DNA of 64,000 nucleotides from a virus. The notes beneath the pieces are model-generated. The model was not told the origin of the DNA and did not search any database. It saw nothing but the letters and a program-made list of their open reading frames with translations. Below are positions 18,258 to 51,994 of this stretch, piece by piece (within the stretch, counting starts at the first letter, position 1; each line of letters opens with the position of its first letter). Location of the stretch: IMG/VR virus record IMGVR_UViG_3300027708_000019. One strand, written 5' to 3'. The position numbers and the translations under genes are program-made.

Positions 18258-18309
18258 ATTATACTATAAAACCGAATAAATGTCAAGCATACCCCTACGG
18301 ACAGTAGGG
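18258..18309 (-). promoter_or_regulatory. Sigma70 promoter TTGACA-17-TATAAT with upstream CCCTAC-N5-GTAGGG palindrome
   Basis: -35 at 18281-18286, -10 at 18258-18263, palindrome at 18293-18309. Confidence 0.85.
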
Positions 18310-18312
18310 TTA

Positions 18313-37123: not shown

Positions 37124-38278
37124 TTAAATGTCAAGCACTTTTTCTGTTTCTTCGGAAACAGGTACTTGCTCTGTTACAACAGCAGTTGGTTCCGAAGAAA
37201 CTTTATCGAACAAGTCCATAAAAGCATCTTTGGTGTGACTGTCAAATCGATTGATAGCCAACTGTACTGCCTTACGCTTGTCCTTATAGATCGCAAAGTT
37301 TTTCACAATGTGAACCAAACGACGAGTCGTAATTGTTTCGTCAACACCACCATCCTCGAAGGTGCGACGAATTGCATCAGCCCATTTAATTAGAACCGAA
37401 GTAAAATCACCATCTAAACAGTCAAGAGACTTCATCAGATTGGTAACGATTTTCGCTTCAACCTTTTGACCAGGATATTCCTGCTCGAAGACAATAGCGA
37501 ACCGCTCGAGGAATGCTTCATTCAAGACGTTGGTGCCGATATAGCGACCATCGTCACTGCCTTTACCTTTGGTGTTAGCAGTTGCGATTACATTAAAACC
37601 CTTCTGTGGGTATACGATTTCGTTCTTGGCTTTGATGTAAAGTGGCTTACCTTCAAGAACACCCTGCAAACACATAAGCAAGTTTGCGCCACCAGCGTCA
37701 ATCTCATCAATCAAGATTGGGATACCCTTACGCATCGCAATCACAACTGGACCATCTTCAATAACCACGTTACCTTCAACCAAAGTCTTAGATGCGATCA
37801 ACTTATCTTCGTCATCAGTTGCGTTCAAGTTAACACGGATAAGAGGTGTCTTTTGTTTTGCACAAATCTGTTCAACCATAGTTGACTTACCATTCCCAGT
37901 CGGACCTGTGATATAGATCGGGTGAAACAATTTAGATTTTACAATCGCTTCAACATCAGTGTGGTTACCCCAAGCAACATAATTGCTATCAACGATTGGA
38001 GCAGCAACTGTGGCTTCAGTAATATATGTAGGTTTGTTCACAGCATTCTCACCGATTTCTTGTTCAACAACTTTACGGACTGTGTTACCACCAGCAATTG
38101 CGTAAAGACCACGACCAACTTTATTGGTCATCAGCCAGTTAGGATACTTAGTAGTACCCAAGGCATTCATCGTGTCAACAATTTGAGCACGACTAACAGT
38201 CCCAGTGTCAACAACATCGGGAAACATTTCAAACAATTTAGACTCAAAAACATTTTGTTCCATCACAAACTCCATCAT
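37124..38278 (-). CDS. MoxR/CobS-like AAA+ ATPase
   Basis: GPTGNGKS, LIDEID, TANTKG.G...GRY.GTNVLNEAFLERF. Confidence 0.85.
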   Translation of the reverse strand: MMEFVMEQNVFESKLFEMFPDVVDTGTVSRAQIVDTMNALGTTKYPNWLMTNKVGRGLYAIAGGNTVRKVVEQEIGENAVNKPTYITEATVAAPIVDSNYVAWGNHTDVEAIVKSKLFHPIYITGPTGNGKSTMVEQICAKQKTPLIRVNLNATDDEDKLIASKTLVEGNVVIEDGPVVIAMRKGIPILIDEIDAGGANLLMCLQGVLEGKPLYIKAKNEIVYPQKGFNVIATANTKGKGSDDGRYIGTNVLNEAFLERFAIVFEQEYPGQKVEAKIVTNLMKSLDCLDGDFTSVLIKWADAIRRTFEDGGVDETITTRRLVHIVKNFAIYKDKRKAVQLAINRFDSHTKDAFMDLFDKVSSEPTAVVTEQVPVSEETEKVLDI

Positions 38279-38288
38279 GTAAAATTAT

Positions 38289-38341
38289 ATTATACCGCAT
38301 TTACGAATTAATGTCAAGCATTAACCCTACAACCTGTAGGG
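38289..38341 (-). promoter_or_regulatory. Sigma70 promoter + CCCTAC-N5-GTAGGG palindrome
   Basis: TTGACA-17-TATAAT; palindrome at 38325-38341. Confidence 0.85.
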
Positions 38342-38343
38342 GT

Positions 38344-38808
38344 TTACCAAGACGACTGGTAGTAAAAATCTGCTTTCTCAAAGGCAGGATCAGCAAGGAT
38401 TTTTCCAATACGTTGAGCAGTATGATCAACATCGCCCATATACCAGTCATCGTATTCAGTTGAGCCAAAGAAGAAACCACTCTTGGTTGGCAACAATTCA
38501 CGAGCAAGTTTCTTATCTTTAAGAATATCTTGACACAGTTTCATCAAGCTGTCCAACTGTTCACGACTAACACGGTATTCGCCACAATCATCTTCACCAT
38601 CCTGAACATTGTCAACGAACCACTGATGGATTGCGTTGGCTTTACGCCAGTAGGCTACTTTGAAGATAACTTCTTGCGCACCATAATCATTTTCTTCATC
38701 GCCATCGACTCCGAACAAATCATTAATGGAAGCAATCTTATCAGAATCAGCTGGATCGAAATACTTACTCATATATTTCCTTGCTGACAAATACATATCC
38801 AAACCCAT
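38344..38808 (-). CDS. Conserved phage hypothetical protein
   Basis: MGLDMYL, YWRKANAIH.WF, GFFFGS.EYD, YQSSW. Confidence 0.7.
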   Translation of the reverse strand: MGLDMYLSARKYMSKYFDPADSDKIASINDLFGVDGDEENDYGAQEVIFKVAYWRKANAIHQWFVDNVQDGEDDCGEYRVSREQLDSLMKLCQDILKDKKLARELLPTKSGFFFGSTEYDDWYMGDVDHTAQRIGKILADPAFEKADFYYQSSW

Positions 38809-38840
38809 AATCTAACTCCTTTTATCAATTCAATAGAGTA

Positions 38841-38933
38841 ATTATACTCTAAACCCGAATAAATGTCAAGCACTTTATTGGGATAACCCTACGTCTTGTA
38901 GGGTTATTTTTCCCATTTAAAATCAATGACTTA
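38841..38933 (-). promoter_or_regulatory. Sigma70 promoter + ATAACCCTAC-N5-GTAGGGTTAT palindrome + IHF-like site
   Basis: -10 at 38841, -35 at 38864, perfect 10-bp IR at 38883-38907, AATCAATGACTTA at 38921-38933. Confidence 0.85.
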
Positions 38934-41204
38934 CGCAACCGCAGCCACAAACCGATTCAGAAGGATTCGGCTGGTCTTCTTTGCCCCCAAATATTTGCCG
39001 AATTTCTTAGCAATTTGGTTCGAAGTCAGATTAGCCATACCCTCATCGAGTTCGGTTTCATCAACTTTGATTGAGTTCGGCAACAAGAACATTTCTGTAT
39101 GACCAGTCATGGTGATTGGGAAGAACATCTCATCGTTGAAACCCTTACGGATTTTGATAGCCAAGTCATTTTCTTGGTAGCTGTTGGTAGCAATACCATA
39201 GCGACCAATTGTGTACATAAGTTCACGACGACCTTTACCAACAACATGATAACCAACAACGCTGGCATCATAACGATCTTGAATCATTTTACAGATAATG
39301 TTGGTACAACTATGAGCAGCGTAGGTATACGTTTTCTTTGAAACTTTGTCAGTCAACAGAGTAACAATCTTTGTACGTTTACGTTCACCATCTTCATAAG
39401 AATAGTCCATTGTGTTGATCCACTCTGAACCTTTGGATACATCATCAGTAAAGTAAGAAGTAGCACCAGTGGCATCACCATCGGTCAACTTGATGACAGT
39501 CAATTTCTCAACTTGGTTAACAGTTTTGAATTCACCGACATAGTTATACAACCACATCATACCTTCGTTGAGCGGAGTGCCATTGAGTTCGTACTTACCA
39601 CTGAATTTTACATTCTGGTCAATATACTCAGACTCATGACAATAAGGTGAGCGGAAACGACCAGTCGTACTCATTATGTATAGATTTTTACAAGCAGTAT
39701 TGAATTCACTGTTTGTCATCTTATGGCTGAAGAATTCAATCATCTGAAAATCATGAGTGAAAGTCAGAGTATTTGGCTGAGACATCACTGTATGATCATG
39801 CGCACGTTCTTCAGCAGTTTTCTCACAGTTATCGCTGAAGGCAAATACTTCAAATGGAATCTTTAGACGATAGCAGAATGTAACCAAAGAGATCAACTGT
39901 TTTACAGTTTCCTCAAGGTAATCTCCCATCGAACCAGACCAGTCGATAGTAAACACCATACCATGTTTCTTACCATCCTTAGTGATTTGAATTTGTTTGA
40001 ACAAGTCCTCACGGATTTTGTAAGAAGCAAGTTTACGAACATCAAGAACACCAGTCTTAGCAACGCTGGTACGTTTGTAGTCAGACGCAGCTTTCTTCAT
40101 CTCAAATTCTTTGATGAGATAGTTTACGATACGACTAGTATCAACACGGAATTGATCATAGTTCTTTTCTGAAGTTGTAAACATCTCATAGAATCGTGCC
40201 TGTGGATTCTTAAACTGTTTCAACATCATAGTTGTCTCAGCAAGATAAGTTTTGTAAGGAATACGGATGTGTTTCGTTTTGCTTGTATCAGGCAACGACA
40301 CTTGAATGTACTTGGTTGAAGTATCGGCAGACTCAGCCAGTTTCTCAGCGAATGCGTTTTGAGTAATACTCTCAGTAGCATCATCAGGCAACGATGGCTC
40401 GTCGGATTGTTTCACCTCATCAGGTGCTTGGTTACCCTTTACCTTAACTTCTTCCTGTTCTTCATCAGGTGTTTCGTCAGTTTCCTCAGGATCACTGTAG
40501 TCAACATCGGATGCCCAGTCGTCATCGTCAAAAGATTCATCTTGCTGTAGTTCAAGTTGTTCTTCCAACAAATCTTTAGCAGCATCTTCTGCTTCCTCTT
40601 GTTTCATTTTCTTGTACTCAGAATCATTTTCACGTTCTTTGTGCTTACGCTCATTTTCACGTTTGATGAATTCATAGATTGCGTTACCAAGAGAAACCAC
40701 ATTGTCGATGGACTCAAGTTTCTCAGCACGTTCGACAAGATATTTCTCAGCGACAGAGAATCGCACACCAGATTTGAAACCAACTTTGAACCAAAGATTG
40801 ATACGATCAATCAAACTCAATTGAGTTACATCGCGACGACTCACATTAAAGAAATCCAATTCATTCAACTCAGCGTAACCCAAGTTGAAAGTTTTACGCA
40901 GTCCTGGATACTTACGCTTCATCAATTTCTCGATGCGAGCATCTTCTAAAATGTTAAGAATAGCAAAGGGAACAGAGGATTTTTGTGCTTTCTCAGCAAA
41001 CAGTTTTTCATCGGTATAGATAGCATGACCAACTTCGTGGGCTTTCAGCATTTCCTCAATTTGAGGTGTCATGTTTTGCCACATTGGCAATGTTAAAATT
41101 CGATTCCTAACATCAAACGAAGCAGTCTTAACAGGTGCTCGGTTGATGAGTAAGTTTTCCTGAGCCAACAGGCGAGTGGATAAGTCGTTCGTAATTTCAG
41201 TCAT
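38931..41204 (-). CDS. CobT-like protein: HExxH peptidase-like domain + acidic linker + vWA domain
   Basis: AHEVGHA, NILEDARIE, IDWSGSM (MIDAS), GTPLNE, LTDGD. Confidence 0.8.
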   Translation of the reverse strand: MTEITNDLSTRLLAQENLLINRAPVKTASFDVRNRILTLPMWQNMTPQIEEMLKAHEVGHAIYTDEKLFAEKAQKSSVPFAILNILEDARIEKLMKRKYPGLRKTFNLGYAELNELDFFNVSRRDVTQLSLIDRINLWFKVGFKSGVRFSVAEKYLVERAEKLESIDNVVSLGNAIYEFIKRENERKHKERENDSEYKKMKQEEAEDAAKDLLEEQLELQQDESFDDDDWASDVDYSDPEETDETPDEEQEEVKVKGNQAPDEVKQSDEPSLPDDATESITQNAFAEKLAESADTSTKYIQVSLPDTSKTKHIRIPYKTYLAETTMMLKQFKNPQARFYEMFTTSEKNYDQFRVDTSRIVNYLIKEFEMKKAASDYKRTSVAKTGVLDVRKLASYKIREDLFKQIQITKDGKKHGMVFTIDWSGSMGDYLEETVKQLISLVTFCYRLKIPFEVFAFSDNCEKTAEERAHDHTVMSQPNTLTFTHDFQMIEFFSHKMTNSEFNTACKNLYIMSTTGRFRSPYCHESEYIDQNVKFSGKYELNGTPLNEGMMWLYNYVGEFKTVNQVEKLTVIKLTDGDATGATSYFTDDVSKGSEWINTMDYSYEDGERKRTKIVTLLTDKVSKKTYTYAAHSCTNIICKMIQDRYDASVVGYHVVGKGRRELMYTIGRYGIATNSYQENDLAIKIRKGFNDEMFFPITMTGHTEMFLLPNSIKVDETELDEGMANLTSNQIAKKFGKYLGAKKTSRILLNRFVAAVA

Positions 41205-41227
41205 CGTTTTCTCCAATTTATAGAGTA

Positions 41228-41314
41228 ATTATACACTATTTCGGAATAAATGTCAATACCCCTGCAAAGTCTTATCTGCAGGGGTTTGAATAACCCTACT
41301 GTTCGGAGGGTTAT
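41228..41314 (-). promoter_or_regulatory. Sigma70 promoter + hairpin + palindrome
   Basis: TTGACA-17-TATAAT; CCCCTGCA/TGCAGGGG IR; ATAACCCTAC-N5-GGAGGGTTAT. Confidence 0.8.
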
Positions 41315-42444
41315 AGTGCACGCCAGTCGTAGAAGGTTTCGACTTTCTTGGTCAGCACAGCCTCAGCCTGTGAGTTGCGGAAGATGTAGCGACCTTCCTG
41401 TGGGAATACTTGATATAAGTCATTTGGTTTAAATGTCAAGTCAATCCAGCGATCTCCATCCTCATCGTCATCAATAGCAGCAGTAAGAGCAGGAGCCAGA
41501 GTAGATTTGATTTTACCTTTGGTTCCCTTTACTACAGGTTTTGTTTTCTTAGACTTGAAGAAGAAAGAGAAACACACATCATCATTGAGAGGATTACCTT
41601 TCCACTCATCGCGACGTAGTTCAGTAATTTTCTCACCCTCAAATGTAACTTCAACAGAATACTTTGAACCTGAGTCAAACTCTGGCTTGGCATTCAGAAT
41701 ACGCAGGGCATCGGCTGGTGATTCATCATAGCGATTCATCTCCTCAACCAGTGCCTTCAACATGTCAAAATTAAACTGATCGAACATAGATGCGATCGTG
41801 CAGATTTTCTCAATGTATTGTTTAGCATTAAGATTATCTTGGCAGTACTCAATGATGAAGGCATGGTCTAAACCTTTGTAGTCGATCATGTAGTACAGGC
41901 GACCAGGACGATTGCGCATATGAGAGTTGATGCGCCACTTGTCATTACAAGTTAGAACAAACAGTTTCTTGGTAGGAAACACACCATCCATCAAAGTCAG
42001 AACAGCTTCCTGAGTTTCTTCACCATAAACTTTCTCAAACTCATCAAACATAATGATGGCTGGCTGGTTGATGTCTTGAATCAACTTGTTAAATTTATCA
42101 CCATGCCAATCGGTGTTGATGATAATAGTAGGAATACCTTTGTTACCAGCTTCGATAGACAGAGTCTTAGCAAGCAAAGTTTTACCTGAACCTTTCTCAC
42201 CATTCAGAAGCACACCTGTTGACATCTCACGTGAGTCAAATGTGTTGAGAATGCGATCTGCGTTCTTCAGCGCATCACCATAAACTTTCTTGATTGGTTT
42301 AAATTGTTCGACTTCCTCAAGGAAGAAGTTCTCGAACGGATCGATCTTTACGATGTAGTTTCCAGCAGGAAGAAACTCATGGACTTCGATGGCTTTGTCA
42401 TCGGCAACACGGAACGTATTACCATTACGAAAAAAATGTGACAT
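41311..42444 (-). CDS. AAA+ ATPase
   Basis: GEKGSGKT, FDEFEK, NRPGR; promoter at 42480-42508. Confidence 0.85.
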   Translation of the reverse strand: MSHFFRNGNTFRVADDKAIEVHEFLPAGNYIVKIDPFENFFLEEVEQFKPIKKVYGDALKNADRILNTFDSREMSTGVLLNGEKGSGKTLLAKTLSIEAGNKGIPTIIINTDWHGDKFNKLIQDINQPAIIMFDEFEKVYGEETQEAVLTLMDGVFPTKKLFVLTCNDKWRINSHMRNRPGRLYYMIDYKGLDHAFIIEYCQDNLNAKQYIEKICTIASMFDQFNFDMLKALVEEMNRYDESPADALRILNAKPEFDSGSKYSVEVTFEGEKITELRRDEWKGNPLNDDVCFSFFFKSKKTKPVVKGTKGKIKSTLAPALTAAIDDDEDGDRWIDLTFKPNDLYQVFPQEGRYIFRNSQAEAVLTKKVETFYDWRAL

Positions 42445-42532
42445 TGTAACTCCTTGATGAATGTCAGCTTCAAAATTATATTATACCTGCTAAGTCCTTA
42501 TTTGTCAAGGACTATTTCCGAATAAATATTCG

Positions 42533-42616
42533 GACAGTGGGTCAATAACGCATAGCAGGATGCCGTGGGTAAGGTTTTCGTTATTTCCCCCACAACTGGC
42601 CAAATGCTACACTGTC
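42533..42616 (-). ncRNA. Candidate structured RNA with pseudoknot
   Basis: Nested stems GACAGUG/CACUGUC, UAGCA/UGCUA, GUGGG/CCCAC; loop AAUAACG pairs CGUUAUU. Confidence 0.5.
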
Positions 42617-42836
42617 ACTCTCCACCAAAGTATTCGATGAGTTTGTTCATAGAACGGATCAGGACAAAGTTGTTCGCTAGATCGTCAGGATGTAGCCAGT
42701 AGCCATCAGGATTGTCCTCGCTCTTAGGATTAGCCAACCACTGGTCGTTCTCCGACTTAAGATAGTTGCGATAATCAATCAGAGTTGCCTTAGTAATACC
42801 ATCAGCAACTTCACTTGGGATTTTAATTTCTCTCAT
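42615..42836 (-). CDS. Hypothetical protein
   Basis: Coupled ORF, YWLHPDD motif. Confidence 0.55.
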   Translation of the reverse strand: MREIKIPSEVADGITKATLIDYRNYLKSENDQWLANPKSEDNPDGYWLHPDDLANNFVLIRSMNKLIEYFGGE

Positions 42837-43174
42837 CGACTCACTCTCAATTCTGCATCTGGATTATCCCAGCATGCGTTACGATACTTATACACAAAGT
42901 CACAGAGTCCTTCATATGAACCCCATCCATTCTCTGGATTGAATTTCTTATACTTTTCTGGATCTGATAGTAGATCATTCCAACCTTCATCAAGAAATTC
43001 TGAGATATCTTTAGCGTATTTCCAACCACACTCATCTGGACGCCATAGTACATGATACAAAGTTGCTCCATTTGATAATTCTACTTTAGCAGCCATTATA
43101 TTCAGATTGTGCGTGATATTACCTTCATACACAGAGACTGGTTGCGTCACCATTAAATCAACATCTAAACTCAT
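42833..43174 (-). CDS. Conserved phage hypothetical protein
   Basis: NITHNL..MA, NPENGWGSY. Confidence 0.6.
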   Translation of the reverse strand: MSLDVDLMVTQPVSVYEGNITHNLNIMAAKVELSNGATLYHVLWRPDECGWKYAKDISEFLDEGWNDLLSDPEKYKKFNPENGWGSYEGLCDFVYKYRNACWDNPDAELRVSR

Positions 43175-43308
43175 CAAGTCACTCCATTTATAAAATCAAC
43201 AACAGCTTGAATCAAGTAAGGATCCAAGTGTAACTTATGGGCAATATCATTTACCCCAAAACGCTCCATCATTTCTCTAACTTCTAAGACCAAACTTCTG
43301 TTGAACAT
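43174..43308 (-). CDS. Small HTH-like protein (44 aa)
   Basis: Hand-translated MFNRSLVLEVREMMERFGVNDIAHKLHLD...; SD AAGGAG. Confidence 0.5.
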   Translation of the reverse strand: MFNRSLVLEVREMMERFGVNDIAHKLHLDPYLIQAVVDFINGVT

Positions 43309-43340
43309 ACGATTCTCCTTTTAGTGGCTCGTATATATAC

Positions 43341-43367
43341 AACGCTCGAACAGAGAGTTTGGTTGAC
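43341..43367 (-). promoter_or_regulatory. ECF-sigma-like promoter GTCAAC-N17-CGTT
   Basis: Second copy of the motif at 32574-32600. Confidence 0.45.
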
Positions 43368-43369
43368 GA

Positions 43370-43780
43370 TTAGTTAATCCAACCTGCAATAGTAACATGA
43401 GATTTTTTTATATTGTGTGCTGTCAACAGCCATTCCGACAGTCTCCTAAGAGATAATCCTTGTTTACGCATACTTCTCACATCCTCTATAATTTCCAATT
43501 CTTTTGTATTCTTTATCAGTTTATTATTCTTAAGTCTATAACCAAAGGGAACATGTCCTCCTAGGAATATTCCGTTTTCTTTTTGTTTCGTTTTGGCTGC
43601 TCGGATTAGTTCAGCTGAATGAACACGATTGCTAGAAAGGTTGTGTATCTTTACATGATGTTTTGAACATAAAGTCAATATATTTTCTTCTTCATCAGAA
43701 CCACCAAGGGATTTTGGCACTACATGATGATGCTCCAATTTATCAGTTACCCCACACAGAACACAGAAATTAAGTTTCAT
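43370..43780 (-). CDS. HNH endonuclease with recombinase-type DNA-binding C-terminus
   Basis: CVLCG...EHHHVVP..LGG....N...LC..HH; GGHVPFGY...SLRRLSEWL. Confidence 0.7.
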   Translation of the reverse strand: MKLNFCVLCGVTDKLEHHHVVPKSLGGSDEEENILTLCSKHHVKIHNLSSNRVHSAELIRAAKTKQKENGIFLGGHVPFGYRLKNNKLIKNTKELEIIEDVRSMRKQGLSLRRLSEWLLTAHNIKKSHVTIAGWIN

Positions 43781-43781
43781 T

Positions 43782-44225
43782 TCAGAACAACCTCTCAACA
43801 ATAATAGCACTACCCATGTCATCACCAAGAGTAAGGTTATCATAATGGGTACGCACAAGACCCTTACGATCCAAGCCAACAATAGCAATAATGTTCACCA
43901 TCATACCAAGCTGGGTTCGGATTTTTTCTAGATCGCTCAAGTCATCCGTACCCTCAGCAGAAGCCAACATACAAGTCAGAAGCATAATCTGCTCCATACT
44001 TTCTTCAACACCAGCAGACACCAAGTCAGCCAACTCAAGCAGTTCATTCATGCTGGTTTCAGGTAGCGCACGGAACCAGTCTCCAATTCTCACATACGGA
44101 TTTTTTTGTAAATCCATAGCAAGCAATCTAATAGTAGGCGACACATGGGAAGCCATAGCAATCTCAGAAAGGTTAAGAGAATAACCCTCCTCGCTAAACT
44201 CGATACGAAAATCATCCTCATCCAT
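43782..44225 (-). CDS. Hypothetical protein
   Basis: Start trimmed to MDEDDF with SD AAGGAG. Confidence 0.55.
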   Translation of the reverse strand: MDEDDFRIEFSEEGYSLNLSEIAMASHVSPTIRLLAMDLQKNPYVRIGDWFRALPETSMNELLELADLVSAGVEESMEQIMLLTCMLASAEGTDDLSDLEKIRTQLGMMVNIIAIVGLDRKGLVRTHYDNLTLGDDMGSAIIVERLF

Positions 44226-44275
44226 CACCATTCTCCTTATATCATCATTCTGTCGTTTACGCCAAAGACTAGCCA

Positions 44276-44428
44276 TTATACCCTCACTGGTCCAAGATGC
44301 CAAGAGGTAGGTGAGTATAGAGATTCTATTAGTCGCCTTGCCTGAAACACATCATTTGCTTGCACAATCACTTCTATCATCGATCCCCCAACCTTTGGTG
44401 TAATCGTTGCTTTCCATGAACTACTCAT
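44276..44428 (-). CDS. Small hypothetical protein
   Basis: MSSSWKATITP...ARRLIESLY. Confidence 0.5.
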   Translation of the reverse strand: MSSSWKATITPKVGGSMIEVIVQANDVFQARRLIESLYSPTSWHLGPVRV

Positions 44429-44588
44429 AATTATCCTCATCATATAAGCCACGCATCTCCATCTGCTCTTCAATCATGGTGAGATAATGTTCATCATCCA
44501 CACTGAGAGAGGTAAGTGTTGAGTAAAAGTTGTATGCCTCAAACACTTCACTGTCTGTCATGTTAATGGGATTAAGTCTTATTGTCAT
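44421..44588 (-). CDS. Small hypothetical protein (55 aa)
   Basis: Hand-translated MTIRLNPINMTDSEV...; fills the gap between neighbours. Confidence 0.45.
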   Translation of the reverse strand: MTIRLNPINMTDSEVFEAYNFYSTLTSLSVDDEHYLTMIEEQMEMRGLYDEDNYE

Positions 44589-44592
44589 AGTG

Positions 44593-44811
44593 TTACCTTA
44601 TTAAATCAATATACTCGCCAAAGTGTGTGTCAAATACAGCCAGTAAGTGTTCATAATCCCCTGCCTGCATTTCTTCAGTGATCGCTTTCCAGTCTAAGCC
44701 ATTGTCCTTAGCAATCTGCTTAGCATAACCAAGAAGTGCGAATGCGTTGCCATCTGGACCCCTAAGATTAATGTAAGGTTTACGTCCCTTCAAGTCTTCG
44801 ATAATAGCCAT
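44593..44811 (-). CDS. Conserved phage hypothetical protein
   Basis: INLRGPDGNAFALLG...GDYEHLL; promoter at 44845-44873. Confidence 0.65.
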   Translation of the reverse strand: MAIIEDLKGRKPYINLRGPDGNAFALLGYAKQIAKDNGLDWKAITEEMQAGDYEHLLAVFDTHFGEYIDLIR

Positions 44812-45119
44812 TCATATTCTCCATTTAGAATTGTATACACTGATATTATACCTGAATGCGGTATTAATGTCAAGGGTGTAGTGTATACAGTTACCCCCCC
44901 ACGATTCAAACCATCTGCCAAGTTTCGGACTTTTAACCCCCCCCCCCTTTGGAGATGGATACTAAAGGTGTAAGAAAATTGGGTGGGGGCAAGCCGATAG
45001 GGACCCGAGCCAAATTTTAGGGGACCCGAATTTAACTTCCCTTTTTGAACCCCTACCCCCCTTATGCTCTCAGCGAAAGGTTAGGGTGTTTCCGCAAAGA
45101 AACTATTACAACTTTCTAC

Positions 45120-45320
45120 TCAGCAATCTGGATCAAAATCGTGCCACTCCTGTGCTTCATCAACAGTATCATAGCGAGCAAATGTTTCCTCAAGAAAATC
45201 TACTGCATCATATACTACATCAACAGGCACACTCAGCATAGCAGCAATCTCTGGTACTGTCATATCAGTAGTGCTTAGCAACTCTTCAACATCAACCAAG
45301 ATATCTTTGAATACACTCAT
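45120..45320 (-). CDS. HTH-like hypothetical protein
   Basis: TVPEIAAMLSVPV; EAQEWHDFDPDC tail; promoter at 45365-45393. Confidence 0.55.
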   Translation of the reverse strand: MSVFKDILVDVEELLSTTDMTVPEIAAMLSVPVDVVYDAVDFLEETFARYDTVDEAQEWHDFDPDC

Positions 45321-45475
45321 AATTTATTACTCCTCTTTTATCTTTTATCAAACCCAACACTGTTATTATACAGCATTCATAATTATTTGTCAAATCAATT
45401 TCCGAACAACACTCACATGCTGTTCGCTTCACAATGAGGCACTAGTATATATACCCCCCCATCAGCATTAAGGGT

Positions 45476-45775
45476 TCATCCCTTTCCCATGGAGAAAGTC
45501 ATTAACAGCTGTTGCGCATCAGAAAGGTCTTCCTCAGCAATACTATCAATGTCATTCAGCAACAGCAGCTGCTCTAGCAATTCAACTTCACGTTGGTCAC
45601 TAGTAGATATACCCCTCTTCCAGGAAAGGTACTCATCATACTCATCAATAGACCACATCTTGTCGAGCAATTTTATTTGCTTTTTATTTACGCCTGTTAT
45701 TGTTACCGAATCTTTGCTCATCTTTGTCTGGCTCCACAAATTAAAAATCAAACCTACTGCCACATTGGCGAACAT
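45476..45775 (-). CDS. Hypothetical protein
   Basis: Q..LLDKMWSID motif; start probably at MSKDSV. Confidence 0.5.
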   Translation of the reverse strand: MFANVAVGLIFNLWSQTKMSKDSVTITGVNKKQIKLLDKMWSIDEYDEYLSWKRGISTSDQREVELLEQLLLLNDIDSIAEEDLSDAQQLLMTFSMGKG

Positions 45776-45920
45776 AAACCACTGTTTTCAGCCAGTGCGA
45801 TCACTACTTCCAATGCCTACGCTAATGCCAATACCGCCAGCACAAAACCCAATATGGGATACCCAGCGAACACTAAAGCAAGGGCAATGATTACGCCCAC
45901 GACCACGGCATCCCTCTCAG

Positions 45921-46205
45921 TCATAAACTACTGCCAATAACGCTACGCTGAACAATATCATAAGTCACCACATCACTCACCTCGTCAACAAGGTCTTTAT
46001 CTGCCACTTCACTCTCGTCAATGTCAAAATATTCACGAATGATGGTAAACTTTTCCTGCTCAGCCAGTTCATAGGTTTCATATACACCGATAACAGCATA
46101 TCCGACATCATAATGGCTCTCAGTCAACACATAAACTTGATTGTTACTCATAGTCTTTTTTATCTCCGTATTCTTCATTGTAATCGTAACCAGCGTTATA
46201 GGCAT
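45921..46205 (-). CDS. Hypothetical protein
   Basis: VYVLTE...IGVYETYELA; start probably at MSNNQ. Confidence 0.5.
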   Translation of the reverse strand: MPITLVTITMKNTEIKKTMSNNQVYVLTESHYDVGYAVIGVYETYELAEQEKFTIIREYFDIDESEVADKDLVDEVSDVVTYDIVQRSVIGSSL

Positions 46206-46350
46206 GAACCTCTGCTTCTGTCAGTTCAGTTACCTTTGGGCTGGTTGCTGTTCCCTGCTCATAGTAATGCGGATCACGTGGGCGACGATAATAACTGTCA
46301 GCCGAACCACGATCAAACGCACCTCCATGTCTCTTGTCAAAATTTGTCAT
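46144..46350 (-). CDS. Conserved phage hypothetical protein
   Basis: RHGGAFDRGSADSYY.R...Y.AGY...GDKKDY. Confidence 0.65.
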   Translation of the reverse strand: MTNFDKRHGGAFDRGSADSYYRRPRDPHYYEQGTATSPKVTELTEAEVHAYNAGYDYNEEYGDKKDYE

Positions 46351-46364
46351 ATTATTTCCTTATT

Positions 46365-46400
46365 AAAAAAACAGCCGATACCACAGATTGGTTTGGCTGC
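46365..46400 (-). terminator. Rho-independent terminator
   Basis: CAGCC...GGCUG stem followed by U-tract. Confidence 0.55.
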
Positions 46401-46499
46401 TCACAGTCCCATCAGACGCAAGCGCAAGAGCTGTCCCAGTGTAGGTTTCAAGCCCAGTCGTTTGCGTAACAGCTGTCCCAATGTTTTCTTTTCTTTCAT
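46401..46499 (-). CDS. 32-aa cationic peptide with duplicated TLGQLLR
   Basis: MKEKKTLGQLLRKRLGLKPTLGQLLRLRLMGL; SD GGAGG upstream. Confidence 0.5.
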   Translation of the reverse strand: MKEKKTLGQLLRKRLGLKPTLGQLLRLRLMGL

Positions 46500-46522
46500 A
46501 TCACTTTCCTCCCTTGTTCTTA

Positions 46523-47455
46523 TTAAGCAGTCAACATATAAGTAGCAAGATCTTTCCAGTTGTCATTGCTAGCACGAACCTTGCTAACAGCGATAAGGGT
46601 ACGCAGGCTGATTTCCTTCACGTCGTCCTTGATCTCACGAATCAAAGCCAAAGCATCAGATTTGATTGTCTTGCTGTACTCAGGCAGGAATTCAGCTGAC
46701 TGGGCGATAGTTTCCATACGATCAATTTTCTGATCAAGCGACATAGTCAAGTCAATCATCATAGAACGTGAACGAATGGCTTGGTCAATTTTGTCTTCAG
46801 TCATATTGCTAATGAAAATAACACGACCTTCAAAATTGAATGACTTTGGCAGGTCTTCGTCTTTGAAGTCAGCATTCCAGCTGATGATGCGTTTGCCGTA
46901 GCTGTCAAGTGCACCTTTCAACAGGTTCAACGCAACTGGGTCTTTGAGGATAGCATCACAGTCATCAAACACAACGATTGACTTGTTGTTTTCGAACAGA
47001 GTGCGGTACAAACCCTTAGCAGTCGAGAAACCCTTGACCATACGGAAGCACTTACGCATAGACACAACGCTACCTACTTGAAACTCAGCCAAGTCAGAGA
47101 TATCGGTGTAGCCTTTGGTTTCCAAAGTCTTAGTCACAGTATAGGTTTTACCCAAGCCACCTTCACCAGTGATAACTGCGGAGGGCTGAACACCATCAGC
47201 AACCATAGACACGAGTTGCTCAACAAAGGCGAAACGCTGGTTGATACCGAAACGCTGGTCTTTCTTGGCTTTGGCTTCAACAGCACCAGCAGTGATTTCG
47301 TCATAGGACAAGTCCATACCTGTCACTTGTTTGAATTTCCACTCAATGTGGGATTTTTTACCAGTGGTGAAGGGTTTAGCATCACCGATTTGGCAGGTAT
47401 ATTTGCCAGTGTTTTTGTCGAAATTCACAGTAGTTTTCACGGTATTCTTAGTCAT
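46523..47455 (-). CDS. P-loop/AAA-type ATPase (early)
   Basis: GEGGLGKT, VFDDCD, FISN, AIRSR; start trimmed to MTKNT. Confidence 0.75.
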   Translation of the reverse strand: MTKNTVKTTVNFDKNTGKYTCQIGDAKPFTTGKKSHIEWKFKQVTGMDLSYDEITAGAVEAKAKKDQRFGINQRFAFVEQLVSMVADGVQPSAVITGEGGLGKTYTVTKTLETKGYTDISDLAEFQVGSVVSMRKCFRMVKGFSTAKGLYRTLFENNKSIVVFDDCDAILKDPVALNLLKGALDSYGKRIISWNADFKDEDLPKSFNFEGRVIFISNMTEDKIDQAIRSRSMMIDLTMSLDQKIDRMETIAQSAEFLPEYSKTIKSDALALIREIKDDVKEISLRTLIAVSKVRASNDNWKDLATYMLTA

Positions 47456-47491
47456 TTTCAGTTCCTTCTTCATTATCAAGTCAATATAGTA

Positions 47492-47557
47492 ATTATGCCT
47501 TAAAACCGAATTTACGTCAAGCACTAAATTCGATTCCCCTACTCACAGTAGGGTTAT
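47492..47557 (-). promoter_or_regulatory. Promoter TTGACG-17-CATAAT + palindrome
   Basis: CCCTAC-N5-GTAGGGTTAT at 47537-47557. Confidence 0.75.
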
Positions 47558-47712
47558 TGGTTCATCGCCTTTACGCCAGATGCCAGGATAGCCAGACCGA
47601 CCAAGGCAACCAGCAACAGGGGCAACAGCTGGGCATCGGTACAGGTGTCCATGCCACCAACAGCACCGAAAGTCACTAGAAAACCCACACCAGCACGAAT
47701 AGAACCACGCAT
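47554..47712 (-). CDS. Small membrane protein (52 aa)
   Basis: MRGSIRAGVGFLVTFGAVGG...; stop TAA inside palindrome arm. Confidence 0.55.
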   Translation of the reverse strand: MRGSIRAGVGFLVTFGAVGGMDTCTDAQLLPLLLVALVGLAILASGVKAMNQ

Positions 47713-47748
47713 AATTAACTCACTTTCTTTATCAATTTCAATACCGTA

Positions 47749-47815
47749 AGTATACCTGAATTACGAATTAATGTCAATCACTACCTACGTATAACCCTAC
47801 TGTGTGAAGGGTTAT
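47749..47815 (-). promoter_or_regulatory. Promoter TTGACA-17-TATACT + palindrome
   Basis: ATAACCCTAC-N5-GAAGGGTTAT at 47791-47815. Confidence 0.75.
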
Positions 47816-48177
47816 TTACGGAAGTAGCCATAGGGCAGACCAACCAAAAAGCACAGGTACTCATCGTCGCCATCGCTACCTTCGGCTTCGTGTACCCAAC
47901 GCAATGCCATCTCATAGGACTTGGCTCCGCTCATCATCAAATTCTGCATGCGCATTTCAAAGTCATGGGCTGCTGCTTCTTGCGCTACCTGCTCATCAGC
48001 GTAGTTGCGCTGAATGGTAGTGGCGAGTCGTTCAAACTCTTGCTCAAACTGCTCAAGCGACCACTCGGTTGTGTCGATTCCACGAGGACGGACGCCATAC
48101 GCATCCTTGTACATATCCCAATACTGACACTGGGCTTGCTCAACAGGGGACATTTCATTCCAACTCAACATACTCAT
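47812..48177 (-). CDS. Conserved early hypothetical protein
   Basis: YWDMYKDAYGVRPR...ALRW...GLPYGYF. Confidence 0.65.
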   Translation of the reverse strand: MSMLSWNEMSPVEQAQCQYWDMYKDAYGVRPRGIDTTEWSLEQFEQEFERLATTIQRNYADEQVAQEAAAHDFEMRMQNLMMSGAKSYEMALRWVHEAEGSDGDDEYLCFLVGLPYGYFRK

Positions 48178-48186
48178 CTCCAAAAA

Positions 48187-48315
48187 TTAACGTGACAATT
48201 CATAGCTGGTTGTCTTGACTGTGTCAACGGCACGATCAAGCACACGTGCCACACCAGCGAAACCGATAGTAGACACAACCACACCAAGGATAAAACCGAT
48301 TACCAATTTAGTCAT
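48187..48315 (-). CDS. Small membrane peptide (42 aa)
   Basis: MTKLVIGFILGVVVSTIGFAGVARVLD... Confidence 0.5.
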   Translation of the reverse strand: MTKLVIGFILGVVVSTIGFAGVARVLDRAVDTVKTTSYELSR

Positions 48316-48351
48316 TTTTTTCTCACTTTCATTTTCAATTTCAATAGAGTA

Positions 48352-48417
48352 AGTATACTAAAAAACCGAATTTCCGTCAAGCATTTTCGGAAATAACCTT
48401 ACAACTTGTAGGGTTAT
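48352..48417 (-). promoter_or_regulatory. Promoter TTGACG-17-TATACT + palindrome
   Basis: ATAACCTTAC-N5-GTAGGGTTAT at 48393-48417. Confidence 0.75.
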
Positions 48418-48605
48418 GCCTGTGGACCAGAAAAGGTAGTTTTACGTGGGAAACCAACAGCAAAGCCAGATGTACCTGTGGAAGCCGAGCGAGTCGTTTT
48501 ACCAGACATCCAGCCAGACTTGGGGGTCTTGCGTGGTTTGTACACAGTCACTGTAACGCCATTTTCAACAGTCACAGACAACACATTACGAGGGATCTTA
48601 GTCAT
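48414..48605 (-). CDS. Small basic hypothetical protein
   Basis: Start MTKIPR with SD AAGGA. Confidence 0.55.
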   Translation of the reverse strand: MTKIPRNVLSVTVENGVTVTVYKPRKTPKSGWMSGKTTRSASTGTSGFAVGFPRKTTFSGPQA

Positions 48606-48641
48606 TTTTATTTCCTTTTCTTTATCAATTTCAATACAGTA

Positions 48642-48708
48642 AGTATACCTGAATTCGGAATTAATGTCAACCACTTTATTCGGATAACCCTACTACCTGT
48701 AGGGTTTT
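48642..48708 (-). promoter_or_regulatory. Promoter TTGACA-17-TATACT + palindrome
   Basis: ATAACCCTAC-N5-GTAGGGTTTT at 48684-48708. Confidence 0.75.
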
Positions 48709-48932
48709 ACATCAGCGTGCTTGACGATAATCACTGAGCGATAGCTACCTTCATACTTCATGGGCAGGTCAAGCGTAACAGTCAAAATTGGACCATCATC
48801 GGTGCTGCGGATGTCATCACTACCTACGGTGCCAACGAAAGGAATTCCGTGGTAGCGACCAAACACACGTGCGCCGAATTCATAAACAGGCTGGTATGCT
48901 TTGTTGTTAAAATAATCTGCTAGTGTTCCCAT
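48693..48932 (-). CDS. Hypothetical SH3-like protein
   Basis: RVFG.Y.GIPFVGTVG; last codons KPYR are encoded by the palindrome. Confidence 0.55.
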   Translation of the reverse strand: MGTLADYFNNKAYQPVYEFGARVFGRYHGIPFVGTVGSDDIRSTDDGPILTVTLDLPMKYEGSYRSVIIVKHADVKPYR

Positions 48933-48945
48933 GTTATGTCCTTGT

Positions 48946-49335
48946 TCAAGCGTAGTTTTTGTAGCGATTCAAATCGCCAGAGAGCCTACTTTTAATTTTA
49001 TGACAGATTACACATAATTCTTGTATATTAGAAACTCTGTTGTCAGCATGGTCTCCATTTATGTGATCAATTTCAGTAAGATGCATATCCTTAGGCAACA
49101 GCTTGTGATTGACTGCACATTTAAATCCTAATTTACCATCTGTGTTCTCACAAATTCCAGTACGATATGGAACAACTCCAGCTGCATATGATTGTCTATT
49201 TTGTTGTGCTTTTTCACAAGAACAGCATATAGGTTTCCAACGATATGTTCCATCTTGATTTTTACGATTCCATGTCACAGGTTTTTTACAACCCTTGTTT
49301 ATACAGATTGGTCTGAATTCTAAAATTTTTGCCAT
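48946..49335 (-). CDS. HNH-like endonuclease with Cys clusters
   Basis: EIDHINGDHADNRVSN.QELCVICH..K. Confidence 0.7.
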   Translation of the reverse strand: MAKILEFRPICINKGCKKPVTWNRKNQDGTYRWKPICCSCEKAQQNRQSYAAGVVPYRTGICENTDGKLGFKCAVNHKLLPKDMHLTEIDHINGDHADNRVSNIQELCVICHKIKSRLSGDLNRYKNYA

Positions 49336-49337
49336 GA

Positions 49338-49547
49338 TTAAACCTTTGAAATTTGAACATCATACGAAACACGATTCATCTTGTGATCGTAAACATGCAT
49401 CGTTGAACCGATACCCACTGCGTTGAACATGTTTTCAAACAGCTGGCGCACGACAGTGTTAACACTGACTGAGTTTCCGACGCCACGTTTGATGGCAGCA
49501 CCAGATGCATAAAAAGACACACCATTCACAACGACAAGGTATTTCAT
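49338..49547 (-). CDS. Hypothetical protein
   Basis: ATGA-coupled to upstream gene. Confidence 0.55.
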   Translation of the reverse strand: MKYLVVVNGVSFYASGAAIKRGVGNSVSVNTVVRQLFENMFNAVGIGSTMHVYDHKMNRVSYDVQISKV

Positions 49548-49780
49548 ACAGTTTCCTTTGCTTCCATCATTTCACACAAAATAAATTTTGCGATATTGAT
49601 ATTCTTGCGAGCTTGGTCAGTTGCTTGAGCATGACCGAAGGACATCAATTCTTGAGCATCGGACAGGACACCCATCGCAACCATTTCAAGACCAGACAAC
49701 TTAGCAGTGATGCTATTCATGTATTGCTCACGGATGTCATCTTGAGTCATACCGTAGCAGTTTTTTTCGAATTCAGTCAT
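49544..49780 (-). CDS. Conserved early hypothetical protein
   Basis: MTEFEKNCYGM...LSDAQE...N.AKF. Confidence 0.6.
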   Translation of the reverse strand: MTEFEKNCYGMTQDDIREQYMNSITAKLSGLEMVAMGVLSDAQELMSFGHAQATDQARKNINIAKFILCEMMEAKETV

Positions 49781-49813
49781 TTTTTTCCTTTCGTTTTCAA
49801 TCACAATAAAGTA

Positions 49814-49895
49814 ATTATGCCTGAATTCGGAATTTATAGCAAGCACTAAATGTGAAAAACCCTACACTCGATAGGGTTATTGTAAGTCATTGATT
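49814..49895 (-). promoter_or_regulatory. Promoter TTGCTA-17-CATAAT + palindrome + IHF-like site
   Basis: AAAACCCTAC-N5-ATAGGGTTAT at 49856-49880; AATCAATGACTTA (minus) at 49883-49895. Confidence 0.7.
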
Positions 49896-49908
49896 TGCTT
49901 AGGTTTTT

Positions 49909-50232
49909 TTACGTCCAGATGTCGCCATCAGCGTCCTTCTCATAGCTGAAGCCAATGTCGCTTGGGGGCACCACTCCGTATTCCTCCATCTCGGCATACA
50001 GCTGTGCTTCTGTTTTGCCGTCAGCCCTGCGTTGCTGTGTGATGAGCCAGCGTTGCCTTTCGGCTACTTCGGTTTCGCTATTCATGTGCTTGCGTTGCGC
50101 AGCACGTTTGACTTCTTTCTGTTCTTCCGTATAGGTGCGTTTGTTACCACAACTACGTGAACAATATGGACCACGTTTCCTGTGCTCCGCACCACACGAA
50201 GGACATTCCTTTAGTCTATATACGTTTGGCAT
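49909..50232 (-). CDS. Zn-finger protein
   Basis: CPSCG...YCSRSCGN. Confidence 0.55.
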   Translation of the reverse strand: MPNVYRLKECPSCGAEHRKRGPYCSRSCGNKRTYTEEQKEVKRAAQRKHMNSETEVAERQRWLITQQRRADGKTEAQLYAEMEEYGVVPPSDIGFSYEKDADGDIWT

Positions 50233-50233
50233 T

Positions 50234-50491
50234 TTATTCAGCCAATAATTCTTCAATCATTTGAATTGCCATCTCACGCTTCATCTCATCACTAGTGTGA
50301 TTCAATGCATCAAGAGCAATTTCTAGTGCTCCTTTATAACGCTGAAGACCAAGACCAATACTCAAGATGGCTTGTGATTCTTGCTCTCTTAATGTTAGTG
50401 GTGAGATCTGTGTTGGTGTCTTATCATATGTGCCATCGAAAGGGTTTTCTAATATGATTGAATCAACCAGCTGTTTTGTGCTATCATTCAT
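50234..50491 (-). CDS. Hypothetical protein
   Basis: ORF in coupled chain. Confidence 0.5.
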   Translation of the reverse strand: MNDSTKQLVDSIILENPFDGTYDKTPTQISPLTLREQESQAILSIGLGLQRYKGALEIALDALNHTSDEMKREMAIQMIEELLAE

Positions 50492-50705
50492 CTGTTTTCT
50501 CCTGTGGGGTTGCTTCTTTTTTAGATAGGATTACTTGATTGGTTTCATTTTCGCCACGCACAATTTCCCATACGAGTGTGTCGCCTTCTGCCCAGCCAAG
50601 TACCTCAAGCATGTCTGGACTGAGTGGGATAACGAGATCTTTCGTTTCTGGATCTTCCTCAACAACAACTGTCCAGCAATTAACACTTATGCGTTCTGAT
50701 ATCAT
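50484..50705 (-). CDS. AbrB/MazE-like DNA-binding protein
   Basis: LVIPLSPDMLEVLGWAEGDTLVW. Confidence 0.6.
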   Translation of the reverse strand: MISERISVNCWTVVVEEDPETKDLVIPLSPDMLEVLGWAEGDTLVWEIVRGENETNQVILSKKEATPQEKTDE

Positions 50706-51007
50706 AACTTCAATCCTTGCATTGATGGTACGATTTGAATTCCGCTACCAAATGATGTGTTATAGTGATTGGCCAGATCAGGAGTTGGCTCATAGTCAGC
50801 AGCAATAGCATGTGGGTAGATGCCAATTGTTTTGTCTGGAATTCCATATGCAGCATATGGAAGGAAATTCAGTTTGACTTTTCCACTCATTTCATCTTGG
50901 GCTGGTGCGAGTATCATTGGTGATTTGATTTCAACAACACCTGTTGGTTGTGCTGACACATCACCAATAATTTCTTCGCCTGTCATTAATTTAATAATAC
51001 GTATCAT
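50702..51007 (-). CDS. Sm-like fold T4-type hypothetical protein
   Basis: IIKLMTGEEIIG...Y...FGSGI. Confidence 0.6.
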   Translation of the reverse strand: MIRIIKLMTGEEIIGDVSAQPTGVVEIKSPMILAPAQDEMSGKVKLNFLPYAAYGIPDKTIGIYPHAIAADYEPTPDLANHYNTSFGSGIQIVPSMQGLKL

Positions 51008-51240
51008 TATGCTCCTCTCGCTGCTGCTTTCACAACAGGTTTCGTTGGTAGTTGACTATTGTTTTTCATCACACGTTTGGTTGCTTCCTTAACAAGTTTC
51101 TTTGCTGCTTTCGGACCAACTTGTGGTGTGATTTCTTTTCTTGCTTTTTTCTTTGCTTTACGCAACTCACGTTCTTGTTTCCATCGTGTTTTGCTATCAA
51201 TGTATATAGGTGCGGTAACGATCGCTGATTCATCTGTCAT
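51007..51240 (-). CDS. Basic hypothetical protein
   Basis: Lys/Arg-rich; coupled. Confidence 0.5.
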   Translation of the reverse strand: MTDESAIVTAPIYIDSKTRWKQERELRKAKKKARKEITPQVGPKAAKKLVKEATKRVMKNNSQLPTKPVVKAAARGA

Positions 51241-51860: not shown

Positions 51861-51994
51861 TTAAAATTTTCCTTGTAATATTTGAACATCTTCACATACC
51901 ATGCGAATCGTTTTGGCTCATGTTCAAAGTTTGGTAACTCACCATAATGCTCAAGCATTTCGTTATAAAATTTCAATACTTCCTCATCTGTCAT
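51857..51994 (-). CDS. Small hypothetical protein (45 aa)
   Basis: MTDEEVLKFYNEM...LPNFEHEPKRF; ATGA overlaps at both ends. Confidence 0.55.
   Translation of the reverse strand: MTDEEVLKFYNEMLEHYGELPNFEHEPKRFAWYVKMFKYYKENFK

Follow-up and report, generated by a model that had tools for sequence, protein, structure and literature searches.

A repeated hairpin in an uncultured T4-like phage: probable PeSL-type cassettes at the head of small early genes

Introduction

Some T4-type phages carry many copies of a short unit in which a stem-loop lies just upstream of a sigma70-like early promoter, with a Shine-Dalgarno (SD) sequence and an ATG at its 3' end. These promoter(early)-stem-loop units (PeSLs), known from RB49/phi1, T4/PST and KVP40/nt-1, occur in hyperplastic regions, with a stem consensus that differs from one phage lineage to another (Arbiol et al., 2010, PMC2839356; Comeau et al., 2014, PMC4122927). 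Their promoter and terminator activities were proven with reporters, excised mini-circles were found, and genes were gained or lost between flanking units, with crossovers placed either between the -10 box and the ATG or between the SD and the -10 box (PMC4122927, PMC2839356). It was also speculated that the conserved stem-loop might be the target of a helper protein (PMC2839356). The present work concerns a comparable family of units in the IMG/VR virus record IMGVR_UViG_3300027708_000019, of which a stretch of 64,000 nucleotides was analyzed (the window, always taken at its full length). The window contains nine copies of a palindrome, ATAACCCTAC-N5-GTAGGGTTAT, each joined to a promoter of the early type.

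Judging from their sequence, it is quite probable that these elements are PeSL-type cassettes, in which a hairpin acting as a terminator or attenuator and an early promoter together insulate small early genes and serve as linkers for homologous recombination. The anatomy of the cassettes, their multiplication into a family of copies, the distribution of this family within a clade, one crossover located in a promoter spacer and the presence, absence or relocation of whole units among relatives can be read directly from the genomes; that the hairpins terminate transcription, and that the cassettes insulate genes and recombine by the general pathway, is what we infer. An earlier note on this DNA had pointed to the PeSLs of T4-type phages, and this pointer proves well founded, as anatomy, genomic setting and gene gain and loss all fit. 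PeSL units being already published, the CCCTAC set is a clear new example and not a new kind of element. Its particular traits are a stop codon embedded in the stem, a compact form in a relative where the hairpin tail is used as the -35 box, and a conservation of the stem that is clade-wide.

A palindrome family joined to early promoters

Nine matches to the palindrome (at most three mismatches) are found in the window, starting at 18289, 38321, 38883, 41290, 47533, 47791, 48393, 48684 and 49856, and none is found in 100 dinucleotide-preserving shuffles of it. This bears out the nine copies with conserved arms and a variable 5-nt center described in the earlier note; some of its positions were core starts, lying 4 nt further in than the 25-mer starts used here, while the others agree. 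Since the sizeable open reading frames (ORFs) of the window all lie on the minus strand, the cassettes are read on that strand, and the nine palindromes are all on this coding strand. Their centers are all distinct (in sense orientation TGTCC, AGGTT, AAGAC, GAACA, TGTGA, ACACA, AAGTT, AGGTA and CGAGT).

Five related genomes, G001 to G005, carry 4 to 24 copies each. Together with the window, they give a set of 61 oriented copies, picked by similarity to the consensus, on which the six-genome counts below are based. The arms are conserved as sequence; the center is 5 nt long in 39 of the 41 exact cores of the window and the five relatives, and its sequence is random across copies. As read from the sequence, the centers of the two half-sites are 11 bp apart. 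G001, an IMG/VR record of 102.5 kb, is about 99% identical to the window over most of its length, and eight of the nine orthologous loops are the same in both. Hypermutation of the loops was rejected on this ground, and the diversity of the loops must therefore be old, as would be expected of ancient paralogues in which the arms are under selection and the loops are free. An apparent flip of one loop (GGACA versus TGTCC) was taken as a coincidence.

The same order is found in all nine copies: end of the upstream gene, palindrome, -35 box, 17-nt spacer, -10 box, leader, SD and ATG. The near-consensus -35/17/-10 promoter that had been noticed downstream of each copy is thus confirmed. Five cassettes have TTGACA-N17-TATAAT, that is, 12 of 12 consensus positions, and the other four have TATACT or CATAAT as -10 box, or TTGACG or TTGCTA as -35 box. 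A purine-rich SD and an ATG are found 13-39 nt past the -10 box (start codon included) in every copy. Shared leaders, also reported in the earlier note, are indeed present in seven copies (tactctATTGAAATTGATAAA-like). The distance of about 13 nt to the -35 box, which it considered usual, holds for six copies (12-13 nt from the end of the 25-mer) but not for the three others, where the gap is 2-3 nt (18289 and 38321) or 33 nt (41290, with a second hairpin, CCCCTGCA..TGCAGGGG, in between). In the six genomes, the -35 box lies within 17 nt of the palindrome end in 55 of 61 copies, and the distances from GGG to -35 fall into classes of 2, 6-8, 15-17 and 37-56 nt. A compact form exists in G002, in which the U-rich tail doubles as the -35 box (GTAGGGGC-TTTACT). 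The minus strand of the window has about 24 such sigma70-like promoters, and only nine of them have a palindrome.

Every palindrome is found where a coding region ends, in the sense orientation. In seven copies the upstream gene ends in or against the arm, as had been claimed: four genes, with ends at 41311, 47554, 47812 and 48414, use the TAA within ATAACCC as their stop codon; in a fifth, which ends at 48693, the left arm is translated as K-P-Y-R and a TAG stop spans the junction of the loop and the right arm; and the upstream stops at 18289 and 38321 overlap the first bases of the arm. At 38883 and 49856, the upstream stops are located 23-28 nt before the 25-mer. Among the 61 copies, 18 upstream ORFs end exactly at the TAA of the arm and about a dozen more within 10 nt of it. 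Moreover, the ATAA of the left arm persists in copies whose right arm is unable to mirror it (GTAGGGGC).

The nine cassettes and the features that frame them are as follows.

Cassette 1, 18233..18313 (minus strand): hairpin 18289-18313, in sense ATAACCCTAC-TGTCC-GTAGGGGTAT, -10.5 kcal/mol; -35 at 18281-18286, -10 at 18258-18263, ATG at 18233 of a 406-aa gene (17013-18233); outside the variable region, within a core block.
DNA polymerase gene, 26835-29336 (minus strand).
Cassette 2, 38278..38345 (minus strand): hairpin 38321-38345 with core CCCTACA-ggt-TGTAGGG, the left arm being overlapped by the stop of the upstream gene 38344-38808; -35 at 38312-38317, -10 at 38289-38294, then a CobS-like AAA_5 ATPase gene (37124-38278).
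Cassette 3, 38808..38907 (minus strand): perfect hairpin 38883-38907, -13.7 kcal/mol; -35 at 38864-38869, -10 at 38841-38846, leader tactctattgaattgataaaaggag, ATG at 38808 of a 154-aa gene.
Cassette 4, 41204..41314 (minus strand): hairpin 41290-41314, whose left arm holds the TAA of a 377-aa AAA ATPase gene; second hairpin at ~41259-41284, between palindrome and promoter; -35 at 41251-41256, -10 at 41228-41233, ATG at 41204 of a 757-aa gene (phrog_459).
Most variable part, 42480..51990 (minus strand): small patchy or relocated ORFs and five of the nine cassettes; also early promoters with no palindrome at 45393, 44873 and 42508.
Cassette 5, 47455..47557 (minus strand): hairpin 47533-47557; -35 TTGACG at 47515-47520, -10 CATAAT at 47492-47497, then an AAA ATPase gene (phrog_1250) with likely start MTKNTVKT at ~47455 and end at 46523; the homologous ATPase gene of G002-G005 is also preceded by a cassette.
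Cassette 6, 47712..47815 (minus strand): hairpin 47791-47815 with one T.T mismatch; -35 at 47772-47777, -10 TATACT at 47749-47754, ATG at 47712 of a 52-aa membrane-like ORF; the orthologous hairpin of G001 differs at 4 of 25 positions, with flanks ~97% identical.
Cassette 7, 48315..48417 (minus strand): hairpin 48393-48417 with a mid-stem C.A mismatch (right arm GTAAGG), -9 kcal/mol; -35 TTGACG at 48375-48380, -10 at 48352-48357, ATG at 48315 of a 42-aa ORF, followed by a 123-aa ORF (47812-48183).
Cassette 8, the hybrid, 48605..48708 (minus strand): hairpin 48684-48708; -35 at 48665-48670, -10 at 48642-48647, ATG at 48605 of a 63-aa ORF (MTKIPRNV).
Cassette 9, 49780..49880 (minus strand): hairpin 49856-49880 followed by TTTTTC, the only copy of the window with a strong U-tract; -35 TTGCTA at 49837-49842, -10 CATAAT at 49814-49819, ATG at 49780 of a 78-aa ORF; an equivalent cassette directly follows gp46 in many relatives.
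Rad50-like gp46 gene, 51991-53703 (minus strand).

Four ORF calls on the minus strand (46523-47524, 48414-48674, 49544-49846 and 38931-41216) begin at GTG or TTG codons inside the promoters or leaders of cassettes. The real starts are likely the ATGs that follow the SD (~47455, 48605, 49780 and 41204), giving proteins 4-23 residues shorter. For annotation, this means that several ORF calls of this region start too early, inside promoters.

Gene turnover between cassettes

At 51541-52192 of G001, two cassettes, A and B, flank a 505-bp unit of two ORFs, where the window has a single cassette (48605-48708). Alignment shows that this single cassette, number 8, is the same as A over the upstream gene, the hairpin and the -35 box (TTGACATTAATTC), and the same as B from the next base on, including the -10 box, the leader and the gene. 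Because the parent switches after the -35 box, the crossover falls outside the palindrome, either within the promoter spacer or within the run of 23 identical bases after it. A distance of 25-30 nt separates the switch from the palindrome upstream of it, and a single parent accounts for the whole hairpin. Thus, where a breakpoint at the palindrome had been anticipated, the one breakpoint resolved between the window and G001 lies in a promoter spacer.

G005 encodes a protein 88% identical to the product of the first ORF in this G001 unit, against only ~65% identity between the core proteins of G005 and those of the window. The nucleotide similarity between G001 and G005 is limited to the segment from the hairpin to the stop of this ORF, and the neighbors differ; this looks like the recent transfer of one cassette. 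Furthermore, the unit comprising the cassette at 38883 and the 154-aa gene is missing from this place in G002 and found elsewhere in G003-G005, and relatives differ in which cassette-headed genes they have and in where these lie.

Eight of the nine palindromes are located between gp46 and the DNA polymerase gene, an interval whose gene content is patchy or relocated in G002-G005, whereas the core on either side is collinear. At 38.3-41.3 kb, cassettes 2-4 lie just below the most variable part. A gene-variable stretch between core blocks is what the T4 literature calls a hyperplastic region.

Distribution among phages and bacteria

The window is part of an uncultured lake phage that is T4-like and Kyanoviridae-like; its habitat is probably freshwater. 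The gp23 (major head protein), helicase, gp47, gp46 and DNA polymerase genes are recognized, in the same order as in the Methylophilales phage Melnitz (Kyanoviridae). The Rad50-like gp46 is 50% identical to that of Melnitz and 48% identical to those of cyanophage and Stenotrophomonas T4-likes. No near-identity DNA match to the window was found among 50,697 phage records, GenBank included.

The four complete genomes of relatives (160-174 kb) carry 24 (G002), 9 (G003), 4 (G004) and 5 (G005) oriented copies, with an array of 14 copies in 9 kb in G002. Among the matches listed in IMG/VR, at least ~60 contigs with the exact palindrome are about 70% identical in nucleotides to the window, and CCCT/AGGG, the base of the stem, does not vary even between phages with only ~70% nucleotide identity in their core genes. 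Melnitz, the nearest cultured relative, has no palindrome. In 80 ATPase loci chosen blind to the palindrome, it was found only in relatives at least 60% identical, and the more distant loci have other hairpins, unrelated terminators or none. An apparent deep conservation of the palindrome before the AAA-ATPase gene of jumbo phages (~33% protein identity) was discarded as an ascertainment effect of loci selected by the palindrome. The jumbo phages met in the palindrome search have 1-3 copies each.

A sigma70-type promoter lies within 75 nt of 52 of the 122 exact palindromes listed from IMG/VR. For two control palindromes of the same composition, the corresponding counts are 2 of 122 among the matches listed and 0 of 26, and both controls are mostly plain terminators. 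The association with promoters was used as the contrast because the raw number of palindromes proved uninformative on enrichment and was dropped, one of the control palindromes likewise having at least 122 matches. A search of 185,579 bacterial species genomes for the exact palindrome gave scattered single matches in unrelated taxa among the at least 120 matches listed, about 140 being the number estimated to occur by chance. An origin from host elements resembling repetitive extragenic palindromes (REP) was therefore rejected.

Comparison with PeSLs and proposed mechanism

Every sequence-level feature of PeSLs is present in these cassettes, which are known here from sequence alone, and close relatives differ by whole genes between two units, with a crossover in the promoter/leader part. 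Differences also exist. PeSLs were described in Straboviridae, whereas the present lineage is Kyanoviridae-like. Their stems are of the GGGG..CCCC or A3-4G3..C3T3-4 types, whereas the stem here is CCCTAC/GTAGGG with a near-fixed 5-nt loop. In addition, the left arm holds the TAA of the upstream gene in ~30% of the copies, the U-tail is often weak, and the compact subtype of G002 uses this tail as -35.

If the cassettes are of the PeSL type, the RNA hairpin would end or attenuate upstream transcription and mark the 3' end of that message. The early promoter, of host sigma70 type, would then restart transcription, so that each small gene would be self-contained and insulated. Because ~90-100 bp of near-identical sequence recurs between genes, phage homologous recombination could delete, insert or move promoter-gene units between cassettes. 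The cassettes would be old paralogues, and their arms would have stayed similar through selection for pairing, for the stop codon and for the U-tail as well as through exchange between cassettes; the unpaired 5-nt loop would drift freely. It may also be proposed, from general ribosome footprints, that a ribosome terminating at the stop codon of the arm covers the left arm, in which case read-through would be coupled to translation of the upstream gene. If the cassettes are of the PeSL type, the known range of such units extends from the T4 relatives among coliphages and vibriophages to distant, abundant uncultured freshwater T4-likes. The promoter-crossover hybrid, and the 88%-identical cassette gene amid a ~65%-identical core, add sequence-level support to the mechanism proposed for PeSLs. 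For annotating these phages, the palindrome cassette also provides a simple marker of variable regions and of units transcribed early.

Concerning the hairpin itself, the nine window copies fold at -8.8 to -13.7 kcal/mol, with z-scores of -1.0 to -5.1 (at or below -2.2 in eight of nine), and have a stem of 6-10 bp with a short U-rich tail. Textbook TTTTT tails are found in window copy 49856 and in many copies of the relatives. Compensated stem variants include CCTTAC/GTAAGG (two, in G002) and ACCCC/GGGGT (three), as well as, in the ATPase loci chosen blind to the palindrome, CCCCAC/GTGGGG, CCCTCT/AGAGGG (with a 4-nt loop) and CCCTCA/TGAGGG.

Several observations weigh against a PeSL-type terminator and linker. 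Covariation is not significant over the 61 copies, with 82.6% of cells paired versus 83.3% in shuffles, in a set whose consensus-based ascertainment biases against covariation; only individual compensated variants are therefore listed above. The compensatory stem changes that the earlier note would have read as the mark of a plain RNA terminator hairpin are thus seen in several variants of the relatives but do not amount to significant covariation. A mid-stem C.A mismatch recurs, inherited, in 10 distinct copies. The U-tract is weak, most window copies having TTAT followed by mixed bases; the 8 nt after GGG contain at least five T in 17 of 61 copies, four in 31 and fewer in 13. A simple terminator scan calls no window copy on the sense strand. 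The ordinary terminators of the relatives have diverse GC stems, UUCG tetraloops and long T-runs (for instance, at 28122 and 143336 in G002, 21594 and 80539 in G003, 34684 in G004 and 69159 in G005), and since they look different, the CCCTAC hairpin is a distinct repeated element and not just any terminator. Finally, the strict 5-nt center and the invariant CCCT/AGGG exceed the regularity needed for pairing.

To this it should be added that several differences between the window and G001 are not at cassettes. A 113-bp stretch (45814-45927) absent in G001 is flanked by 12-nt near-repeats, ATTGGCAGTAGT / ATTGGAAGTAGT, and is a short-repeat deletion unrelated to the cassettes. A 174-bp small-ORF indel has no cassette at either end, and an endonuclease-like ORF is swapped for an unrelated ORF. 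A 94-nt stretch (42523-42617), directly upstream of the promoter at 42508 and downstream of the stop of a 73-aa gene (42615-42836), is absent from the close relative G001 and is therefore dispensable. Upstream of this indel, the window and G001 are only 82% identical, against 98.7% before it, which places a mosaic boundary at the promoter at 42508, a promoter without a CCCTAC palindrome. Indels away from the units occur here and in published PeSL cases alike.

Alternative explanations

The hairpin CCCT(AC)-N5-(GT)AGGG could be a sequence-specific signal for a factor encoded by the lake T4-like phages of this clade or by their hosts. Such a factor would be, for example, a protein that loads on the hairpin, as RNA or as extruded DNA, and sets read-through or starts cassette recombination. 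If true, a factor-read hairpin would explain the invariant base of the stem, the fixed 5-nt center of free sequence and the contrast with the UUCG-loop terminators. We nonetheless regard it as unlikely.

A related proposal, that the hairpin is an RNA signal proper, seems quite unlikely. It would be a processing or stabilizing 3' end, or the site of a phage RNA-binding protein or nuclease recognizing the CCCU/AGGG stem. The weak U-tract of most copies, the stem base that stays invariant in phages with core genes ~70% identical and the constant position at coding-region 3' ends on the sense strand all agree with this. However, the loops, which proteins usually contact, are random, and no candidate protein is known; no family of Rfam 15 reaches its gathering score in the window. 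Moreover, window copy 49856 and its TTTTT-tailed counterparts in relatives are textbook terminators, and in more divergent phages other, ordinary terminators occupy this position.

It also appears rather improbable that the palindrome is an operator or roadblock on duplex DNA, bound by a dimeric phage or host protein that would control the early promoters or block read-through. In such a site, the half-sites CCCTAC and GTAGGG would be contacted one helical turn apart and the 5-bp center left free. This would account for arms conserved as sequence and not merely as pairs, for a center of constant length and random sequence, for half-site centers separated by 11 bp, for mid-stem mismatches that are tolerated and inherited, and for the dissimilarity to the canonical UUCG-loop terminators of the same genomes. 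However, the classes of -35 distance put the copies on no common helical face, and not all of them overlap the promoter, which argues against a regulator needing a fixed position. Extended stems and other loop lengths exist (N13 in G002, N6 in G004 and a 4-nt loop in the IMG/VR contig L447), and compensated double changes are found inside single genomes. The ATAA kept in the left arm without its mirror (GTAGGGGC) fits a stop codon better than a symmetric site. As for the candidates put forward in the earlier note for its dimeric regulator, the winged helix-turn-helix protein (36342) has a homologue in Melnitz, where the palindrome count is 0, and the AbrB-like protein (50484) is absent from G002 and its 24 copies. 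Neither tracks the palindrome, and with the variable -35 distance this leaves the proposed operator without support.

Exchange of the lox/FRT type requires identical spacers. It is highly improbable that the palindrome is a crossover site for site-specific recombination, of the loxP/FRT or integron attC type, that inserts and excises gene cassettes: the array does resemble a cassette array in which whole promoter-gene units are gained, lost and moved, and the helper-protein speculation of the PeSL authors (PMC2839356) goes in this direction, but the nine centers all differ, the resolved exchange switches parent outside the palindrome, the other indels use short direct repeats or no repeat, and neither a tyrosine (PF00589) nor a serine (PF00239) recombinase is found in G001 and the four complete relatives, in a search that was positive in 14 of 14 and 12 of 14 control genomes, respectively. 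The loxP-like crossover suggested in the earlier note is therefore not supported, its search for a tyrosine recombinase having returned 0 PF00589 matches in these five relatives.

Other known systems compared

Like intrinsic terminators, the elements have a GC-containing stem, an A-rich 5' side and a T-rich 3' side, and immediately follow stop codons; a full T-run is even present in 49856 and in many copies of the relatives. Unlike them, they reuse one stem sequence, where the ordinary terminators of the relatives have diverse stems and UUCG loops, and most tails are only TTAT, the element being nearly always fused to a promoter.

Integron attC arrays also contain small, mostly unknown genes between imperfect palindromes, with a content that varies cassette by cassette among relatives. 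Here, in contrast, a promoter is part of each cassette, while the cassettes of integrons lack one; conservation extends to the sequence of the palindrome and is not limited to its structure; the crossover lies in promoter homology; and the search of G001 and the four complete relatives gave no tyrosine or serine recombinase. The resemblance to loxP/FRT sites lies in two inverted arms of ~10-13 bp around a short asymmetric center. It does not extend to the centers, every one of which differs, nor to the exchange point, which is outside the palindrome, nor to a recombinase, as none is found in the five relatives.

REP sequences and bacterial interspersed mosaic elements (BIME) are likewise short conserved palindromes repeated intergenically after stop codons, and are thought to be mRNA 3' stabilizers or terminators. 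The present palindrome differs in being phage-borne and promoter-coupled, its bacterial counterparts being, among the matches listed, scattered singles.

Further observations

A hairpin related to the second type of the window, CCCCTAC-aactt-GCAGGGG, heads a cassette at ~130985-131010 of G005. This form and the CCCCTGCA..TGCAGGGG hairpin thus indicate more than one stem family in the clade. Another hairpin, unrelated to the CCCTAC family and terminator-like, is found on the minus strand of the window at 36300-36332, right after the stop of the winged helix-turn-helix gene (36342-36662). It is a perfect 14-bp hairpin, TGGATCTGGACATT-ggga-AATGTCCAGATCCA-like, followed by TCATTTAT.

No Pfam match was obtained for the ORFs of the cassettes, nor for the ORF that replaces the HNH-like gene in G001. 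The latter gene is a 129-aa ORF of the window (48946-49335, minus strand) with weak similarity to HNH_3 (20.2 bits, below the Pfam cut-off). In G001 the same slot (50834-51313; L010:6834-7313) holds an unrelated 159-aa ORF with the same conserved neighbors. Replacement of an ORF in the same slot is a pattern typical of the turnover of free-standing homing endonucleases. At 71461-71948, G001 also has 487 bp more than the window, which corresponds to positions 29922-29928 of the latter, just downstream of the DNA polymerase operon.

An 11-G run is present on the minus strand of the window at 44920-44935, upstream of the promoter at 44873, in a region with two overlapping promoter-like sites; the length of this homopolymer could be variable. 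Lastly, six IMG/VR contigs (L078, L056, L061, L103, L128 and L134), including those of ~340-kb jumbo phages, combine the exact palindrome, tailed by TTTTT, with a promoter of the form TTGACC..GCTATAAT. A conserved leader of ~50 nt (taacataatgtagtttttagacaacactttt) follows this promoter, ~350 nt upstream of a gene pair encoding an AAA-ATPase (phrog_1250) and a helicase, and might be a regulatory RNA.

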